From a virus, in IMG/VR virus record IMGVR_UViG_3300021091_000012: DNA of 64,000 bases; one strand, given 5' to 3'. Shown one piece after another: positions 35,135 to 58,804 of this stretch. A program made the translations under genes and the position numbers. Positions within the stretch are counted from its first letter, which is position 1; every line of letters starts with the position of its first letter. The notes under the pieces are model-generated. The model did not search any database. It had not been told where the DNA came from and was given only the letters and a program-made list of their open reading frames with translations.

Positions 35135-35154
35135 TTGCATATAATTATATGCAG
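35135..35154. repeat. Palindrome TTGCATATAA|TTATATGCAG matching both outer arms of the cassette att site
   Basis: 18-bp perfect palindrome (35136-35153). Left 10-mer equals 45610-45619; right 10-mer equals 44894-44903. Confidence 0.6.
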
Positions 35155-35173: not shown

Positions 35174-35570
35174 TGGTGGAGTCGGAGGGATTCGAACCCT
35201 CGTCCATAACGACTAATACTAAGGACTCATTCACAAGCTTATTTAGTTTTCTAACTAACAACTAGTTGGTTGGTTTTTCATCATCGTCAACCTACAACCA
35301 ATGATTCCCGACTCGGATTTTAAGAGCCAGCCGGCGTGCTCGAGCATGCACATTTGTTTATTCTGAGTAAGTGCGACTCAGCGGTTAAGCTGCTACTAGC
35401 AGTTCAGCCTCTTCAGCCACGCGAGTGATTGAAGTTGGGATACTCATCATATCCTCAGAGTTGTATTTGTTTGCGTTTATCGCTTGATAGGTAATTAAGG
35501 ATTTCCAATCTAACCCTGCTTGCATCATCTCAAAGAACTACGGTCATCTGTCAAATCCAGCGTCGACCCC
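35174..35570 (-). ncRNA. ssrA: tmRNA (phage-encoded)
   Basis: 5' GGGGUCGACGCUGGAUUUGAC and 3' GAGGGUUCGAAUCCCUCCGACUCCACCA. Acceptor stem GGGGUCG/CGACUCC with G3-U wobble, discriminator A and encoded CCA; T-arm; 397 nt; internal tag ORF ending LVAA-stop. Confidence 0.95.
35385..35474 (-). other. tmRNA tag reading frame ANKYNSEDMMSIPTSITRVAEEAELLVAA
   Basis: Resume codon GCA after AUAAAC; 29 codons to TAA; C-terminal AA degron. Confidence 0.8.
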
Positions 35571-43232: not shown

Positions 43233-44321
43233 TTACTCATAATTTCGGATAGCTGTTACTTTTGGAAAGCGTGGCTTACCGTCAGGAGTAATGTTAAAGT
43301 ACTTGATCGTAGCTTCTTGACCGATTAATGTATCTCTTTCACTCCACAGCTCCTTAAGGTGATCCCATCCACCATTAACTGAGGCTGTGAACTTATCTCC
43401 TTGTGTTGTTTGGAATATTAATGCTCCGATCATTCCAGCTAGATTTCCATTACCCTCTTCATACCCTACGATTGTGTACTCCTCATCAATGAATGACTTA
43501 TGCTTGAGTAATGACTTAGAGCGTTTGTTCTCATACATACTGTTTAGTCTTAGCATCTGACCTTCATATCCCTGACTTACATACTCACTGTAGAATGTAT
43601 TAACATTCTCAGCAGACTCTACATAGTTAGTCTCGACTAACACACAGCAAAGTGGTAACTTCATCTGTTGCAGTGCTGTGTATCTCTTTGTAAACACTTC
43701 ATCGCAACTAGGTAAATCATAAATGTGGTACTCAATAACCTTAGCACTATCTTCTAGGTCCTTAGTTGTTGGCTTTGATTTCTTCACTAGTGATACAATA
43801 GCATTAAAGTCGTTAGCATACTTGTCAGCATACAATTCCCCATCGAAGATAAGATCCTGATCTTGTTCAAATAGTGGCTTGAGTGCTTCGAAAATGTGTG
43901 GAGCTGAGATGATTGGTTTTCCAGTTCTAGTCCACATTCCATCGTTACGTACAATACATCTAATACCATCTAACTTAGGTTGAGAGTAGATAGGATACTG
44001 AATCTTGTCAGCATAATCTTCCCACTTATTAGCTAGCATGGGTTTGAACATTGTACCATTATCAATATCGGATACGTTGGCAAAGTAATTACGTTCTGTA
44101 CGCTTTTTCCACTCAGCATTAGCCTCAGCTAACGCCTGACCTTCCGGTGTTGTTTCGTTACTTCTTCCGATGTTTTTACCTTGGCAATATGTCCATTCGG
44201 TAGTTGTTTTGACTCCATCAACATAACCGGAAATCGTACGATAACTATTACCTTCGACTTCAATTGTATGCTCCAAAACCTTTCCATTGGTAGCACGCTT
44301 AAATAGTGTTTGTAACTTCAT
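43233..44321 (-). CDS. ATP-dependent DNA ligase
   Basis: PMLA, SQPKLDGIRC (KxDG), FDGELY, YHIYD, YEGQMLR, LLKHK, KPRFP. Confidence 0.95.
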   Translation of the reverse strand: MKLQTLFKRATNGKVLEHTIEVEGNSYRTISGYVDGVKTTTEWTYCQGKNIGRSNETTPEGQALAEANAEWKKRTERNYFANVSDIDNGTMFKPMLANKWEDYADKIQYPIYSQPKLDGIRCIVRNDGMWTRTGKPIISAPHIFEALKPLFEQDQDLIFDGELYADKYANDFNAIVSLVKKSKPTTKDLEDSAKVIEYHIYDLPSCDEVFTKRYTALQQMKLPLCCVLVETNYVESAENVNTFYSEYVSQGYEGQMLRLNSMYENKRSKSLLKHKSFIDEEYTIVGYEEGNGNLAGMIGALIFQTTQGDKFTASVNGGWDHLKELWSERDTLIGQEATIKYFNITPDGKPRFPKVTAIRNYE

Positions 44322-44336
44322 ATCTTTTATTATTTA

Positions 44337-44372
44337 TACATAAAGATCACGACAATTAGTCGAGTTTGCAAC
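44337..44372 (-). promoter_or_regulatory. Early promoter GTTG-N20-GATCTTTATG
   Basis: Same motif upstream of the ligase gene. Confidence 0.6.
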
Positions 44373-44422
44373 AAAAACGTGTTTTATTTTTTACTTTTTT
44401 GCATAAAGTTATGAACCGTTTT

Positions 44423-44812
44423 TTAACGTTCGATTCCTAGCTGAGCGAGTGTGACAGGAGTGTAGTTTACATGCTCACACGACACACAATAGTATCGACG
44501 ATCAACGCGTTTAAACCAGTTAAACCCTAAAAAAGTAAACCACTTTTCCACGAACTTTTCGTGAATATGACCGTGAATAATACGCTTGACACGGTGGTCT
44601 AATTCCATTGGATGAACGGGGCAGTGAGACATCCAAATGCCCTTATATCGCATCATTGCTCCTACTTGGTCAACATACTTTAGAAGCTCAGGAATATGCT
44701 TGGGCATATCGTGGTTTCCGAGCACAACTTTCTTACGACCGTTCAAGCGATCCAACAGTGGATACGGTTTAAAAGACTCCATTGTAACGTCTCCTAAAAT
44801 GTAGGTCATATC
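44423..44812 (-). pseudogene. Calcineurin-like metallophosphoesterase, 3' part (interrupted gene)
   Basis: D-MTYILGDV, VLGNHD, MSHCP, IHGHIH; motif I is missing here and lies at 45621-45752. Confidence 0.9.
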
Positions 44813-44983
44813 GATTGGGTGTATGAGAAGGTTTGCTTAAATGAACTTTCAAATTACCACCAAACTTTATAGCAAACTTTCTTATACACCTTGTTATATG
44901 CAGTGTGGATTTAAACAGAAAATGTTAATACGAAGAACCTAACCTTTTTGTTTTATTTTGTGGGAGGAAAATTAAAATTTGAA

Positions 44984-44991
44984 TATTTATA
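44984..44991 (+). promoter_or_regulatory. Late-type promoter motif TATTTATA on the cassette's coding strand
   Basis: Same octamer found upstream of minus-strand late genes; here 22 nt before ATG 45014. Confidence 0.6.
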
Positions 44992-45013
44992 TATAATAAA
45001 ACTATTTAATAAT

Positions 45014-45538
45014 ATGAAACTAAGAAAAATTATAGCAACTACTATACGTGAGTATTTGAATGAACAACAAGAAACTGAAACCAACTTAAATAATAACTTT
45101 AAGAAATGGTTTGGAAATAGTAAAGTTGTTTATAACGGAAAACCACTACCTGTTTATCACGGCTCACCAGAAGAGTTTGATAGTTTTATGGGTGATACAT
45201 ATTTTACACCAGATTATTTTAATGCTGATGGATATGCTGGTGATGGAACGGTTTATGAAGTTTATTTGAGTATTAAAAGACCATTAATTGTAGATGGTAA
45301 AGATAAAAAATGGGATGATATTGAAACAGAATACGGCACATCAACAAGAGAAGTAGTAGCAAATGTTGATAGAAGTAAATATGATGGTATTATCTTTATA
45401 AATATAAAAGATGCTTGGTTTGATGATGTGGATTATCAAGATTCTGATACTGTTTATGTAACATTTAAACCGAACCAAATAAAACACGTTGAAAATGATG
45501 GAACTTGGGATATTGCAGATGATAATATTTTTTCTTAA
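45014..45538 (+). CDS. ADP-ribosyltransferase-like (ART-PolyVal-type) protein, cassette cargo
   Basis: FKKWFGNSKVV--GKPLPVYHGS, YFT, VYEVYLSIKRPL, YDGII, YVTFKPNQIK; leader MKLRKIIATTIREYLNE. The only convincing plus-strand gene in the window. Confidence 0.75.
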   Translation: MKLRKIIATTIREYLNEQQETETNLNNNFKKWFGNSKVVYNGKPLPVYHGSPEEFDSFMGDTYFTPDYFNADGYAGDGTVYEVYLSIKRPLIVDGKDKKWDDIETEYGTSTREVVANVDRSKYDGIIFINIKDAWFDDVDYQDSDTVYVTFKPNQIKHVENDGTWDIADDNIFS

Positions 45539-45620
45539 ATTTGTGCGGTGGAAAAAATAAAACAAAAAGAATATAACCACAAAACTTAATACGAAGAGAT
45601 AACGTAGCATTGCATATAAC

Positions 45621-45752
45621 ACGTTTATGTACGACACTATTCCACATTTTTATGACGTGTTCATCGTGCTCTTCTGCACTAGAAAATCCACGTTTTTTGG
45701 CCATGTTTTCGTGACCTAAATGTAGATCAGCAATGAATCTTACTACGCTCAT
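45621..45752 (-). pseudogene. Calcineurin-like metallophosphoesterase, 5' part (interrupted gene)
   Basis: MSVVRFIADLHLGHEN...WNSVVHKR, exactly 44 codons before the insertion. Confidence 0.9.
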
Positions 45753-45757
45753 ATCTC

Positions 45758-46003
45758 TTATTTATTTACTATTTTATCTAACCTCTCAACTTCCTCAGCT
45801 ACAACATCTAGCGCAATTGCATATCTCCGATCCGCTTCCTCATTCGGAACGAATCTAAAATTGTAGTCTGAATTTGGATTAATCATGTAACGACCTCCTT
45901 TATCGCCTTGAATAACAAATAACTCTAAGTGCCTAAGGAACTCAACAATAGTACCAAATAAAACCTCTTTTTTGTTTAGCGGGTTTGTGAATTTTACTCT
46001 CAT
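45758..46003 (-). CDS. Hypothetical early protein
   Basis: Start re-placed at ATG 46003 (MRVKF), after the early promoter and AGAGATATG context. Confidence 0.6.
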   Translation of the reverse strand: MRVKFTNPLNKKEVLFGTIVEFLRHLELFVIQGDKGGRYMINPNSDYNFRFVPNEEADRRYAIALDVVAEEVERLDKIVNK

Positions 46004-46019
46004 ATCTCTCTTAATTTTA

Positions 46020-46055
46020 TACCTAAAGATCCCCACATAAATCCGATTTTGCAAC
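46020..46055 (-). promoter_or_regulatory. Early promoter GTTG-N20-GATCTTTAG
   Basis: Repeated motif. Confidence 0.65.
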
Positions 46056-46064
46056 AGTTTAGGC

Positions 46065-46136
46065 AAAAAAAAACCACTCCATGTAGCGACACTTGAAGTG
46101 GTTAAAAATGGCCATAGCCATACGGTCCTAAGCCGT
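46065..46136 (-). terminator. Three-hairpin 3' element ending in an intrinsic terminator
   Basis: Minus strand ACGG-CUUAGGA-CCGU, AUGGC-UAUG-GCCAU, AACCACUUCA-loop-UGGAGUGGUU, then a U-tract. Confidence 0.7.
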
Positions 46137-46140
46137 CTTT

Positions 46141-46512
46141 TTAGTCTTTATATTCGATCAATAATTCACCCAAAACTTCGATTTTTCCAACCAATTTTTG
46201 GAACTCATTTTGACTGATATTTAGTCCTTTTTCACTGGTTGCTTTAGCGAGTTGATCGACTAAAGTTTTGTACTCTTCACGGCCTTTTTCCGGGTCAAAT
46301 TCACCCTTACTAGCCTTCTCATAGTACGGTAATTTCACGTTGAAATGGTAGTAAGTTAGCATGGCGTCACCACCCTTTTCCTTGGCGTTTTCAGCAATTT
46401 TTTCCGCACCTCCTAAACGCGTTTTAGCGAAAGATTTTTCGTCTTTTTCTTCTTTTTTCTCGCCTGGAGTTTTAGCTTCTTCGGCCTCTTTAAGTAGTTG
46501 TTTTAACTTCAT
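46141..46512 (-). CDS. Hypothetical protein with MKLKQLLKE leader
   Basis: Late-motif variant at 46527-46534; shared leader. Confidence 0.7.
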   Translation of the reverse strand: MKLKQLLKEAEEAKTPGEKKEEKDEKSFAKTRLGGAEKIAENAKEKGGDAMLTYYHFNVKLPYYEKASKGEFDPEKGREEYKTLVDQLAKATSEKGLNISQNEFQKLVGKIEVLGELLIEYKD

Positions 46513-46536
46513 TTCTCTGTGTTTATTATAAGTATA

Positions 46537-46719
46537 TCAAGGATTGTCTATACGATCAACAATAAAGCTATCCGTGCCCGTTCTAATATTCCACTGACCA
46601 TCAAATCGTGGAAGTTGCTTTTGTATATAGGCTAAGTATAGCTTACCGCGTTGGGTACCTTCAGGACCTGAAGCTCGGCCATAATCAAATTCCGCTAATA
46701 TGTCTCGAAGTTTAATCAT
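46537..46719 (-). pseudogene. Probable deletion-derived chimera (leader joined to the C-terminal end of a paralog family)
   Basis: MIKLRDILAE joined to QRGKLYLAYIQKQLP, which matches KRTKLYMAYFKKQMP of 47377-47835. Confidence 0.5.
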
Positions 46720-46879
46720 TACCCCGCTCTATAACTCCAATGAAATCAGTCTTTGAATTAGCAAAATCAGAATCCCCATCATCAAACGACTTGATAGTGT
46801 AGCCTTCATTTGACTTACGAATTAAGCAGATCTTTAAGCTTTGTTAATTTCATAATGTATTCCATTTAATATAAATATG

Positions 46880-47380
46880 TTATTTAATTTTAATAACAAC
46901 GTTTGCATTATCATGATCGCGCATAACTTGTGCGCCCGGAAATGTGCGTGTAATGAACCGTCTATATAAGGTATCACGTTTGTTGTTACTACCGAACTCA
47001 CCGGTCTTTTTAGATGGTTCATATACGATGGCTTGTACATCAAATTCAAACCGATTTTCAATTGCATCCTTTACGATAAGCATAATAGTTGCCATGATAC
47101 GATATAGATCACCTTCATTGGTAACAATTTTAGTTGACCAGCCTTGATCACCCCGACGTTGAGCTAGGAAGTCTATGCTGATTGCAGGTAAGTCTTGCTT
47201 CTGATCACGCGGGTTCGGATATTCACTGAAATCAGCTATATTCACTTCATACTCAGTACCTTTATCTGTTATGAATCGCGCTACCTGATTATCATATGAT
47301 CCTTGAGACATCCATTTATATTCAAATGGTTTGGCAGACCCTTCACCAATCTCCGTCAGCATATGTTTAAGTTTAATCAT
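46880..47380 (-). CDS. Hypothetical protein, MIKLK..EIGEG family
   Basis: Paralog of the next gene (EIGEG; F-TD---EY-V; TN-GD-Y--M-T; KR--LY). Confidence 0.75.
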   Translation of the reverse strand: MIKLKHMLTEIGEGSAKPFEYKWMSQGSYDNQVARFITDKGTEYEVNIADFSEYPNPRDQKQDLPAISIDFLAQRRGDQGWSTKIVTNEGDLYRIMATIMLIVKDAIENRFEFDVQAIVYEPSKKTGEFGSNNKRDTLYRRFITRTFPGAQVMRDHDNANVVIKIK

Positions 47381-47835
47381 AGCTGTATTACAAACTCTCC
47401 CTGCTCTCCGGGATATATTTTACTAGTCGGCATTTGTTTTTTAAAGTACGCCATGTATAATTTTGTCCTTTTATCTTTCGTTGTAGAGTCGTCTCTTGTT
47501 TGCGCTGAATCAAATTTAAGTTGATATACCTCCTCATGATCGTTGGTGAAATCTTTAATAATATCAAACACCGTACTCATTACTTTGTACATATCTCCTT
47601 TATTTGTAATCACATCTGTGCTAAATCCACCACTGCTTGCTCCAATCTCTCTTGCTGCAAATGATACGTCCCACGTTTCGCCTTCACCAAAAGATTCAAA
47701 AGATACTTGATATTCTGAATTAGTATCTGTTTCAAATCCATACTGCACCTCATCATCGGATTCGTAATCTATACCCCACCTATATGGCCTAACACCTTCT
47801 CCAATCTCCACTAGTATATTTTTGAGTTTAATCAT
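47377..47835 (-). CDS. Hypothetical protein, MIKLK..EIGEG family
   Basis: Paralog of 46880-47380. Confidence 0.75.
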   Translation of the reverse strand: MIKLKNILVEIGEGVRPYRWGIDYESDDEVQYGFETDTNSEYQVSFESFGEGETWDVSFAAREIGASSGGFSTDVITNKGDMYKVMSTVFDIIKDFTNDHEEVYQLKFDSAQTRDDSTTKDKRTKLYMAYFKKQMPTSKIYPGEQGEFVIQL

Positions 47836-58408: not shown

Positions 58409-58444
58409 TACCTAAAGGTCGTCCAGGTTTTCCAAATATGCAAC
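58409..58444 (-). promoter_or_regulatory. Early promoter GTTG-N20-GACCTTTAG
   Basis: Repeated motif. Confidence 0.7.
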
Positions 58445-58770
58445 AGCTCACTAAAAATAAAATTCAAAAGTTATGAACCGATGTGTGTTACTGGGGGGGG
58501 GAGGGGGAAGGAGTTATGAAAAGATATGCACAAGTTATGAACCGGGGTGGGTGTATAACTTCTATAGAAAAAATTTGCAAATCGCGCGGCATGTGTGTAT
58601 ACCATCCACCCCCCATATATAATAAACAAACCCTTGTTATGTGTGGTAGTGTCTATCTTATCGTTTCGTGGGTAAACGGTACTATAAAATTGAATGTCTA
58701 TTACAATAGTGATGTTAACCGTGTATTATGGTTAAAGGTATAGACTGATGTGAGTAGCGTACTATGGGTA

Positions 58771-58804
58771 GTTGGGTGTAAACCTTCTCATACACCCAAT
58801 CGTT
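58771..58804 (-). repeat. Truncated second copy of the cassette att arm, forming a short hairpin
   Basis: 58780-58802 is the exact reverse complement of 44812-44834 (23 bp) and continues with the predicted GTT core. Confidence 0.8.

Follow-up and report, generated by a model that had tools for sequence, protein, structure and literature searches.

Integrons are the textbook gene-capture devices of bacteria and are defined by their integrase, IntI. An insertion specific to IntI, located between patches II and III of the enzyme, binds extrahelical bases of the folded attC sites. Folded single-stranded DNA is also the form in which the CTX phage is integrated by host Xer, with exchange of one strand pair, and pdif modules are known on Acinetobacter plasmids. 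In phages, integron fragments and clusters of attC sites without an integrase (CALINs) have been described, and IntI1 can use some of them (Qi et al. 2023; PMC9892861). In T4-type phages, modules flanked by PeSL have been proposed to be excised as mini-circles and shuffled by homology (PMC2839356, PMC4122927). Here we analyse an 808-bp segment (positions 44813-45620) of a 64-kb stretch of viral DNA (64,000 nucleotides; IMG/VR virus record IMGVR_UViG_3300021091_000012), and the whole of this stretch is called the window hereafter. The segment splits a metallophosphoesterase-like gene, and it very probably represents an entire cassette, found outside its array, of an integron-like gene-capture system that phages carry.

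A system of this kind is apparently undescribed so far. The reports found in the literature cover stray attC clusters and integron fragments in phages, and no phage-own Xer-type recombinase with cassette arrays was found among them.

Precise insertion into a phosphoesterase gene

The 808-bp segment interrupts a minus-strand metallophosphoesterase-like gene (45752-44423) exactly between two codons. The 5' part of the split gene (45621-45752, minus strand) has 44 codons, ends in WNSVVHKR and holds the DxH motif in the form DLHLGH; the 3' part (44423-44812, minus strand) continues with D and MTYILGD, has 129 codons plus a stop, and carries the GD and GNHD motifs. Removal of 44813-45620 restores 173 codons. 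The original prediction, made by reading the sequence, had stated that the segment lies between codons and that its deletion restores a 173-aa enzyme. Our own reading gave the same result, and ten relatives with an intact gene support it.

In one of these relatives, from IMG/VR (L001, 91% amino acid identity), the gene is intact, and the sequence around the expected position is cataaacgt^gatatgac (carets mark crossover points or the corresponding positions of uninterrupted sequences). The other nine (L249-L257, 87-93% identity) come from a protein-based scan of metagenomes, and all of them are uninterrupted at the same codon boundary. Altogether, the empty sites of the ten relatives encode NSVV[H/N]KR^D[M/L]TYILGD, and their DNA reads AAACG[T/C]^GAT[A/T]TGAC. 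Because ten relatives carry the intact gene at the predicted base, the insertion is derived and precise, and it took place without target duplication; hence, it is a real event. A different junction or a duplicated target in relatives had been named beforehand as the outcome that would speak against the predicted insertion, and neither is seen. Two further claims are confirmed on the insert sequence: both junctions share one C on the plus strand, which leaves the position of the crossover uncertain by one base, and no transposase is present among the content of the insert. The predicted sequence of the site after removal of the cassette is ..GTCATATC ACGTTTATG.., and the predicted circle junction, with the cassette end joined to the cassette start, is ..CATATAAC GATTGGG...

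The intact gene of the IMG/VR relative (L001:3869-4387) shows a weak match to Metallophos (E 0.0016; 19.3 bits against a cut-off of 21.5). Its protein bears the DxH, GD and GNHD motifs, the first of which is cut off from the remainder by the insert. This split of the metal-binding motifs probably inactivates the phosphoesterase gene. The G+C content of the insert, 28.6%, is the lowest among all 808-nt segments of the 64-kb window (mean 37.0, standard deviation 2.9). A distant blastn search of 44300-46100 against GenBank phages gave no match, and a metagenome scan with the left flank as a pattern gave none either.

Structure of the insert ends and their recurrence in cassette arrays

The cassette (44813-45620, plus strand) runs from the G after the crossover to ..CATATAAC. 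It begins with an unpaired 5-nt spacer between crossover and stem (44813-44817, plus strand), which reads GATTG here and GGTTG in most copies, and which faces a 2-nt TT at 44891-44892. The 5' arm of a hairpin (L'', 44818-44837, plus strand) pairs with the 3' arm (L', 44871-44890, plus strand) over 20 nt at 90%, around a loop of 33 nt, and both mismatches are G·T on the plus strand. An R' box follows, GTTATATGCAGTG (44893-44905, plus strand), which is complementary to the cassette's own 3' end. The last 13 nt form the R'' box, CATTGCATATAAC (45608-45620, plus strand), with the crossover at AA^C or AAC^. Pairing between 44892-44905 and 45608-45621 extends over 14 nt at 93%. All three non-Watson-Crick positions in the pairings of the cassette ends are G·T on the plus strand. 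When the joined junction is folded as DNA, the predicted energy is -25.0 kcal/mol for the plus strand (z -8.5 against shuffled sequences) and -19.3 for the minus strand. The pairing and the fold that had been foreseen for the joined ends, an imperfect hairpin with AAC/GTT cores, were thus found; the length of about 94 nt that had been given for it was not, since the structure measures about 106 nt from box to box.

The same ends occur with other cargo in about 100 IMG/VR phage contigs. The trailer pattern retrieves 24 IMG/VR loci and the exact 23-mer of the hairpin retrieves 85. When the element was compared by BLAST with the loci fetched via the cargo protein, leader, trailer and hairpin were present at several places per contig, and one locus (L007) is a head-to-tail array. 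A check proposed together with the original prediction was whether the ends recur with other cargo or at other sites; many other cargos and many places were found.

In these arrays, which run on the same strand, folded attC-like sites separate small genes, and a unit ends in ..nnnnTAAC, directly followed by G, the rest of the spacer and the next hairpin. In 24 loci the trailer is followed by ..GCATATAAC, and next comes either G plus hairpin or other DNA. Among 83 distinct copies of the hairpin family, the preceding bases are TAAC in 77, nAAC in three, TATC in two (this window and L265) and another sequence in one. As the ends recur as array unit boundaries, the window insert begins and ends exactly where array units do. 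The spacing is also regular: in 111 of 128 sites the spacers measure 5 nt on the 5' side and either 2 or 1 nt on the 3' side (classes 5x2 and 5x1).

A recombinase gene adjoins the arrays

A tyrosine recombinase had been suggested as an object of search, and one was found directly beside such cassette arrays in related large phages. A search of five contigs with the Pfam model Phage_integrase gave one match, in a complete 310-kb phage (L070), directly after the last cassette. The same recombinase was located by tblastn right after the array in L079, L069, L077 and L082, and L002/L003, which hold the closest copies of the window's cargo gene, also bear it just past the array. The protein has 268 aa and keeps the catalytic motifs (..GLRVSE.., HTLRHS, GHS..IYTH).

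The association was quantified in a set of 41 IMG/VR loci, on contigs of up to 362 kb, whose recombinases are at least 54% identical. At these loci, 113 attC-like sites were counted upstream of the recombinase gene on its own strand (0.73 per kb), as against a single one downstream and none on the opposite strand; in control loci, whose recombinases are distant, the density is 0.005 sites per kb. The arrays end about 50 nt upstream of the recombinase gene at a conserved junction, TAAC^TATTATATATA. In every locus with upstream sequence, a variable R'' box is followed by TAAC^TAT(T/C/A)ATATATA about 50 nt before the start codon, as is characteristic of a fixed, attI-like site. L113, L111 and L110/L112 agree completely (100% identity) in the 850 nt that follow TAAC^ on the right; on its left, these contigs with identical recombinase genes have unrelated cassettes. 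In this comparison, the identity break at TAAC^ reads as the signature of different cassettes captured at one fixed site. The idea that an integron-like cassette system operates in large phages is thus supported by arrays that adjoin an Xer/IntI-like recombinase and, judging from the contigs surveyed, the system is common in such phages.

Among NCBIfam models, the best for the recombinase is XerA_Arch (178.8 bits; cut-off 220), and lower scores were obtained with the integron integrase model TIGR02249 (156.7 bits in two stretches; cut-off 265), XerD (147.6 bits; cut-off 329.6) and XerC (146.6 bits; cut-off 335). By its profile scores and alignments, the enzyme is classed as a short Xer/IntI-like tyrosine recombinase, not as an IntI, and the system is accordingly described here as integron-like, not as an integron sensu stricto. 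Its bacterial and archaeal relatives, searched in one genome per species, reach at most 52% identity; those examined (41-52%) are longer and lack arrays, and no bacterial home was found among them. The nearest relatives in GenBank phages are the integrases of the Polaribacter phages Freya and the Cellulophaga phages Ingeline, at 36-37% identity.

Pairing and covariation of the sites

The boxes have the forms ATTGnnnnTAAC and GTTAnnnnCAGT, with a variable middle and invariant TAAC and GTTA. In 36 consecutive site pairs, 6.97 of the 8 variable positions of an R' box pair with the R'' box by which its own cassette ends. The corresponding value for R' and R'' of the same inter-cassette site is 5.0 of 8, and that for random pairs is 4.77 of 8. 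Pairing with the own end exceeded pairing with the neighbour in 33 of the 36 cases. In short cassettes, 7-8 of the 8 positions pair with the own end, with one conserved G·T. The paired boxes can be unrelated in sequence from one cassette to another, as in GTTAGCGGTA/TACCGCTAAC, GTTAGCAAA/TTTGCTAAC and GTTATAAGCC/GGCTTATAAC. Since the 5' GTTA box of a cassette is complementary to the 3' TAAC box of that cassette and not to the one of its neighbour, the two ends must meet, as they would in a circle. Complementarity of ends that are hundreds of bases apart is predicted by a circular intermediate, and integron cassettes follow a similar logic.

Stem covariation was examined in an alignment of 22 sites less than 85% alike, with 25 consensus pairs. 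Bases are paired in 96% of the cells, and compensatory changes occur in 17 of the 25 pairs. There are double changes in 129 cells; after shuffling of the columns the number is 38 +/- 5, and with partners slid by 1-3 columns it is 18-41. The pattern TAAC..GTTA is its own reverse complement, and for this reason the non-Watson-Crick positions of the stems were counted on loci oriented by the recombinase gene. On the recombinase-sense strand there are 153 G·T and 11 A·C positions, and the other strand shows the mirror image. Two G·T pairs are invariant, one in the stem and one formed by the G after TAAC. The compensatory changes and the strand bias indicate that the fold is under selection and strand-specific. 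The sites have the architecture of attC sites, R''-L''...L'-R', that is, imperfect inverted repeats with AAC/GTT cores in which structure rather than sequence is conserved.

Crossover point and alternative explanations

The clean off-array insertion in the window is the new element here, and it fixes the crossover to within one base. The target on the plus strand is CATATC^ACGTTTATGTACGA and the canonical site is CATATAAC^GATTGGGTGTATGA; the two have in common a CATA.. arm, a C at the crossover and TGTA seven bases downstream. On the strand of the interrupted gene the target reads G^AT (CATAT-C^ACG on the plus strand). The original prediction had recognised this minus-strand G^AT as a non-canonical integrase site. 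This reading agrees with the report that IntI1, in the absence of attI1, prefers GAT over GTT as a secondary integration site (PMC2811028). In integrons, strands are exchanged between G and TT of the R' box, which corresponds to AA^C on the folded bottom strand. Judged by the two junctions in the window, the crossover here is at AA^C or AAC^ of the plus strand, and the arrays are compatible with both positions. The arrays and the junction beside the recombinase gene confirm the earlier proposal that, relative to the cargo gene, the crossover lies in the AAC (R'') box.

A second, independent hybrid junction, TATC^GGTTGGG, is present in L265, inside the 3' arm of another site, and it looks as if a canonical site had recombined there with a secondary ATC^ point. 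In L265 (2873-2910 and 4111-4155), a 36-nt small site is cut at ..TTTATC^ and joined to the GGTTGGG.. of another cassette, and a complete copy of the small site stands two cassettes later.

Cultured phages provide a further case. In the Polaribacter phages Freya_10 and Freya_1 (L168, L338-L340), a 4.9-kb block of small genes differs, while the flanks compared are 99.7-100% identical. The left edge of the block in Freya_10 is ..ATTGTTTACAAC^GGATATGG.. and the right edge is ..ATTGTTGCTAAC^ACCCCTATAAC.. (..CAAC^GG.. and ..CTAAC^ACCCC), and Freya_1 reads ..ATTGTTTACAAC^ACCCCTATAAC... The integrase that starts 67 nt after the right edge has 36% identity with the recombinase of the arrays. These alignments indicate that the Freya isolates differ by an insertion at the same kind of core, adjoining a related enzyme. 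The records of Freya_1 to Freya_10 differ stepwise in length at this place.

An explanation that does without a recombinase is that a repeat-flanked module, similar to PeSL modules, was excised as a mini-circle and inserted by homologous or microhomology recombination of the phage, through the resemblance of CATATC to CATATAAC. Shuffling of this sort has been proposed for the PeSL modules of T4-type phages (PMC2839356, PMC4122927). The long conserved leaders and trailers of the cassette family would support homologous exchange, the same cargo is found behind another stem in L002, decayed copies exist, and both the target and the cassette end contain CATAT. However, the junctions are not where microhomology predicts: the left one keeps the TATC of the target and the right one the TATAAC of the cassette, which puts the exchange at C, outside the shared CATAT, and speaks against an insertion driven by microhomology. 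Homology-driven exchange has no need of own-end complementarity between unrelated boxes, nor of stem covariation. Neither would it lead one to expect that TAAC^ is the unit boundary in 77 of 83 copies and also the junction beside the recombinase gene, nor that the sites are tied strictly, in position and strand, to a tyrosine recombinase gene. We therefore consider this explanation unlikely.

It is quite improbable, in turn, that the sites are simply RNA structures of the transcribed strand (terminators, processing sites or mRNA end-pairing), with a secondary link to mobility and insertion by some other route. A fold specific to the gene-sense strand, with conserved G·U-type pairs, would fit such a role, as would the position of the hairpins between genes, where terminators sit; integron attC sites are themselves thought to be weak terminators (PMC9892861). 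Yet three observations would be left unexplained: the break of identity between near-identical phages exactly at TAAC^, the presence of the sites only upstream of a recombinase gene, and the start and end of the insert at the TAAC^ point. In addition, many loops hold the start of the next open reading frame (ORF), or a whole ORF, unlike terminators. RNA and DNA roles can, however, coexist.

Precise insertion between codons, the lack of a target duplication and structured ends that pair would also be expected of a self-splicing intron, or of a hairpin-guided transposable element (IS200/IS605-type or another) whose enzyme has been lost. This we regard as very improbable, as the strand that has the G·T pairs is not that of the interrupted gene, and the elements have a single subterminal hairpin, no Y1 transposase in the arrays and a head-to-tail arrangement beside a tyrosine recombinase. 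The intron as such was rejected. An Rfam scan of 44000-46500 at E values up to 10 gave three matches at chance level and no group I or group II family. With a 5' exon that ends in U, the last base of the intron would be C; with the boundary shifted by one base, exon and intron would both end in G. Neither case agrees with the rules for group I, and a group II intron does not begin with GUUAU.

Finally, a chimeric join of two phages in the metagenome assembly is hardly credible: the sharp difference in composition between insert and surroundings would suit it, but the sequence on either side belongs to one and the same phage, a chimeric join is not expected to set an entire unit, delimited to the base by the crossover points of the system, between gene halves that restore the frame, and an accidental join that restores a reading frame to the base is very unlikely.

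Relation to integrons and other described systems

The resemblance to integrons is manifold. A tyrosine recombinase gene adjoins a fixed insertion point and a one-directional array of small cassettes. The sites are imperfect palindromes with AAC/GTT cores in which structure prevails over sequence, the cassette ends would pair in the circle, and the fold is strand-specific. The polarity of the predicted cut strand relative to the recombinase gene is that of the attC bottom strand relative to intI: read 5' to 3', the folded strand has TAA^C, hairpin, GTTA, cassette and so on to the last cassette, followed by the attI-like site and the recombinase gene in sense orientation. In classical integrons it is the bottom strand that recombines, and it leads to intI in this same direction. 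Insertion at GAT as a secondary site is likewise known for IntI1 (PMC2811028).

There are also clear differences. The recombinase has only 268 aa and lacks the IntI-specific insertion. The cassette genes are on the folded strand, all co-directional with the recombinase gene and pointing towards it, not away from it, and a cassette carries almost all of the folded site at its 5' end. The R boxes measure 12 nt, with a conserved G·T, and the spacers 5 x 2 nt. Many cassettes have a promoter-like leader of their own, whereas integron cassettes are mostly promoterless and expressed from Pc. The hosts, moreover, are large phages of the virulent type.

With the CALINs of Qi et al. (PMC9892861), the system shares attC-type sites and cassettes in virulent phages, among them a Polaribacter phage, and orphan DNA methyltransferases as cargo. 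The CALINs, however, have no integrase and were tested with the bacterial IntI1, and no phage-own Xer-type recombinase, adjacent array or attI-like junction was described in that work.

Elements that exploit Xer and dif are similar in the short Xer-type enzyme, in the folded single-stranded substrate of CTX and in the bounding of pdif modules by recombinase sites. They differ in relying on host XerC/XerD and on a 28-bp dif-like double-stranded core, whereas here a phage enzyme goes together with folded sites of 60-140 nt with variable stems, and with arrays of tens of cassettes. The XerC, XerD and XerA scores of the recombinase are all below their thresholds, and the sites are long folded structures, which sets the system apart from this class. 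PeSL cassettes, the closest concept known from phages but a homology-based one, also consist of small accessory genes in hyperplastic regions of large myoviruses, with repeated stem-loop flanks and proposed mini-circles. They are promoter-terminator motifs without a dedicated recombinase, in contrast to the fixed crossover base, covarying stems and adjacent tyrosine recombinase found here.

Origin of the cassette and proposed mechanism

Several observations weigh against our reading of the insert as a cassette of such a system. No tyrosine recombinase was found in the 64-kb window by tblastn or with a profile of 19 tyrosine recombinase sequences (control hit 4e-117), and none was found in the 53-kb contig of the relative L001. 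Residues 180-212 of the recombinase (33 aa) face residues 181-261 of IntI4 (81 aa) in 2a3v, so that the IntI-specific insertion is absent. The G·T bias and the stems are what a folded DNA strand predicts, but an RNA structure on the transcribed strand fits them equally well. Truncated or hairpin-less copies of the cassette family exist in L064, L074 and L084. Lastly, L002:2790-2895, when compared with 44813-44905 of the window, has the same cargo (95% aa identity) and the same R' box behind a different stem; probably, stems and cargos have been re-assorted by homologous exchange in the conserved R' box, leader and trailer.

The alternative stem of L002, GGCTGTATGG..../....CTATACAGC, is internally compensated. 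The copies in L064, L074 and L084 were also considered as further clean solo insertions, and were rejected because they are truncated or decayed.

In base composition, the insert (28.6% G+C) is near the recombinase-bearing loci (mean 30.7%; L002 30.3%), unlike the lineage of the host phage (37-39%). On this basis we infer that the cassette came from a recombinase-bearing phage, most simply during co-infection. The recombinase would then have acted in trans, supplied most likely by the co-infecting phage or by a part of the genome outside the window. The original prediction had been that of a free circular cassette integrated by a tyrosine recombinase in trans. The pairing of the cassette's own ends and the recombinase beside the arrays speak for it; the circle and the action in trans are the steps that we propose rather than observe.

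The mechanism that we envisage for the integron-like system is as follows. The home of the cassettes is the same-strand arrays of large A+T-rich phages, including jumbo phages of at least 300 kb, which end about 50 nt upstream of the recombinase gene. An inter-cassette site, read on the gene-sense strand, comprises the R'' box (..nnnnTAAC), the crossover, a G followed by 4 nt of spacer, a stem of about 20 bp that covaries and encloses a variable loop, a spacer of 1-2 nt and the R' box (GTTAnnnn..). Once the gene-sense strand has folded, the recombinase would cut its R'' box at AA^C or AAC^. Recombination of two sites would release a circle, in which the R'' and R' boxes of the cassette pair with each other, and the circle would be inserted again into the attI-like site that adjoins the recombinase gene or, in rare cases, into a secondary site. 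In the present case, the cassette would have entered a different phage, of higher G+C content, at a secondary site within a phosphoesterase gene that is dispensable, and would have brought in an ADP-ribosyltransferase with its own promoter-like leader.

A broader proposal, which we hold with some but not strong confidence, is that large phages run an integron analogue of their own: a short Xer-type recombinase, devoid of the domain regarded as necessary for attC recognition, would act on folded single strands and keep a stock of tradable genes for counter-defence and host takeover, and cassettes would jump between unrelated co-infecting phages into secondary GAT sites. The stock would include DNA methyltransferases, an anti-Thoeris protein, ADP-ribosyltransferases and capsid-targeted proteins. 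The window illustrates that cassettes reach phages of different lineage and composition, at the cost of splitting a conserved gene. If the proposal is true, it would explain the unit-by-unit gain and loss of accessory and counter-defence genes in the hyperplastic regions of large phages, offer a direct test of whether the IntI-specific domain is needed to recombine folded DNA, and provide a natural catalogue of phage accessory genes delimited to the base. The system may then resemble an ancestral state of the integron or be a parallel invention. The cultured Freya phages, with a block bounded at the same kind of core, open it to bench study.

Cargo genes

The sole substantial ORF of the insert (45014-45538, plus strand) encodes a 174-aa ADP-ribosyltransferase (ART) of the ART-PolyVal type. 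It matches PF18760 above the gathering score, with 67 bits (cut-off 31.2; E 3.8e-18) over positions 3-136 of the 140 in the profile. The closest copies, in L002/L003, are 95% identical in amino acid and 91% in nucleotide sequence. The N-terminal leader of the protein, MKLRKIIATTIREYLNE, is common to unrelated cargos: in the family to which the window's cassette belongs, the ART, a GNAT and other cargos begin with M(E/K)LRKFIxTTI(R/C)EYLNE. Many genes of the window's own phage start with similar leaders ending in L-x-E.

In phage T4, Alt and the internal proteins are targeted to the capsid and injected, and have L/I-x-E protease sites. The parallel with the cassette protein is twofold: it is an ADP-ribosyltransferase, and its short N-terminal leader ends in L-N-E and is common to unrelated cargos. 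By analogy, the L-x-E leader suggests a capsid-targeting leader that would be cut by a prohead protease and would load the cargo into the capsid. At 46141-47835 (minus strand) and elsewhere in the window, unrelated small proteins start with MIKLKxxLxEI.. or MKLKQLLKE.., ending in L-x-E, and two of them match DUF6934.

Of the 74 array ORFs of at least 90 aa, about 60 have no Pfam match. Those with a match include four or five DNA methyltransferases (N6_N4, MT-A70, D12, Eco57I-like), the Thoeris inhibitor Tad6, a thymidylate synthase, a PARP-like domain and a metallophosphoesterase. The position of the ORF relative to the hairpin varies: at L082:8250-8010 and L082:8800-8690 (both minus strand), an ORF or its start sits in the hairpin loop, with the R' and R'' boxes about 11 nt apart. 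The two layouts, with the ORF inside or outside the loop, are equivalent on a circle. The gene directly after the recombinase in the 310-kb phage (L070:2538-3233) looks like a SIR2-type NAD-dependent deacetylase when its GAGIDKESG.. motif is read by eye.

Other features of the insert and of the window

Inside the hairpin and the R boxes, the cassette contains two further pairs of repeats. A direct repeat, ..TTAATACGAAGA, has one copy in the leader (44920-44936, plus strand) and its counterpart in the trailer (45581-45597, plus strand). In the form (A/C)nnTTAATACGAAG(A), it brackets the ORF in every cassette of this family and is absent elsewhere in the window, and 24 IMG/VR loci have it conserved in their trailers. 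When the cassette is folded as a circle, its two copies come to lie opposite each other across an internal loop of 38 x 38 nt. A genome-wide promoter motif was considered for TTAATACGAAGA and rejected, as the only copies in the window are the two within the cassette. A perfect 16-nt inverted repeat, conserved in the cassette family, also brackets the ORF, with one arm in the leader (44944-44959, plus strand) and its partner in the trailer (45554-45569, plus strand). A possible late-type promoter, TATTTATA (44984-44991, plus strand), lies 22 nt upstream of the start codon of the cargo gene. Copies of TATTTATA stand before an ORF in 5 of 13 cases on the minus strand and in 1 of 6 on the plus strand (the cassette copy), counts that make this weak evidence, too weak to rely on.

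Two more traces of the cassette ends are seen in the window. A second, partial copy, ..AAAAC^GATTGGGTGTATGAGAAGGTTT (58780-58801, minus strand), is identical over 22 nt to the 5' end of the cassette. It follows ..GGATAAAAAC^ and closes into a short hairpin (..ACACCCAAC). Next to it, about 340 nt at 58440-58780 are apparently non-coding, with runs of C and G and repeated GGTTCATAAC motifs. The region 58440-58801 may be the remnant of an array or an attachment site.

The other trace is a perfect 20-nt palindrome, TTGCATATAA-TTATATGCAG (35135-35154), in which a 10-mer of the R'' box is joined to a 10-mer of the R' box, including the asymmetric outer T/G. A tmRNA gene (35174-35570, minus strand) has its 3' end 20 nt away from the palindrome, which could be a minimal or collapsed recombination site, or else a terminator.

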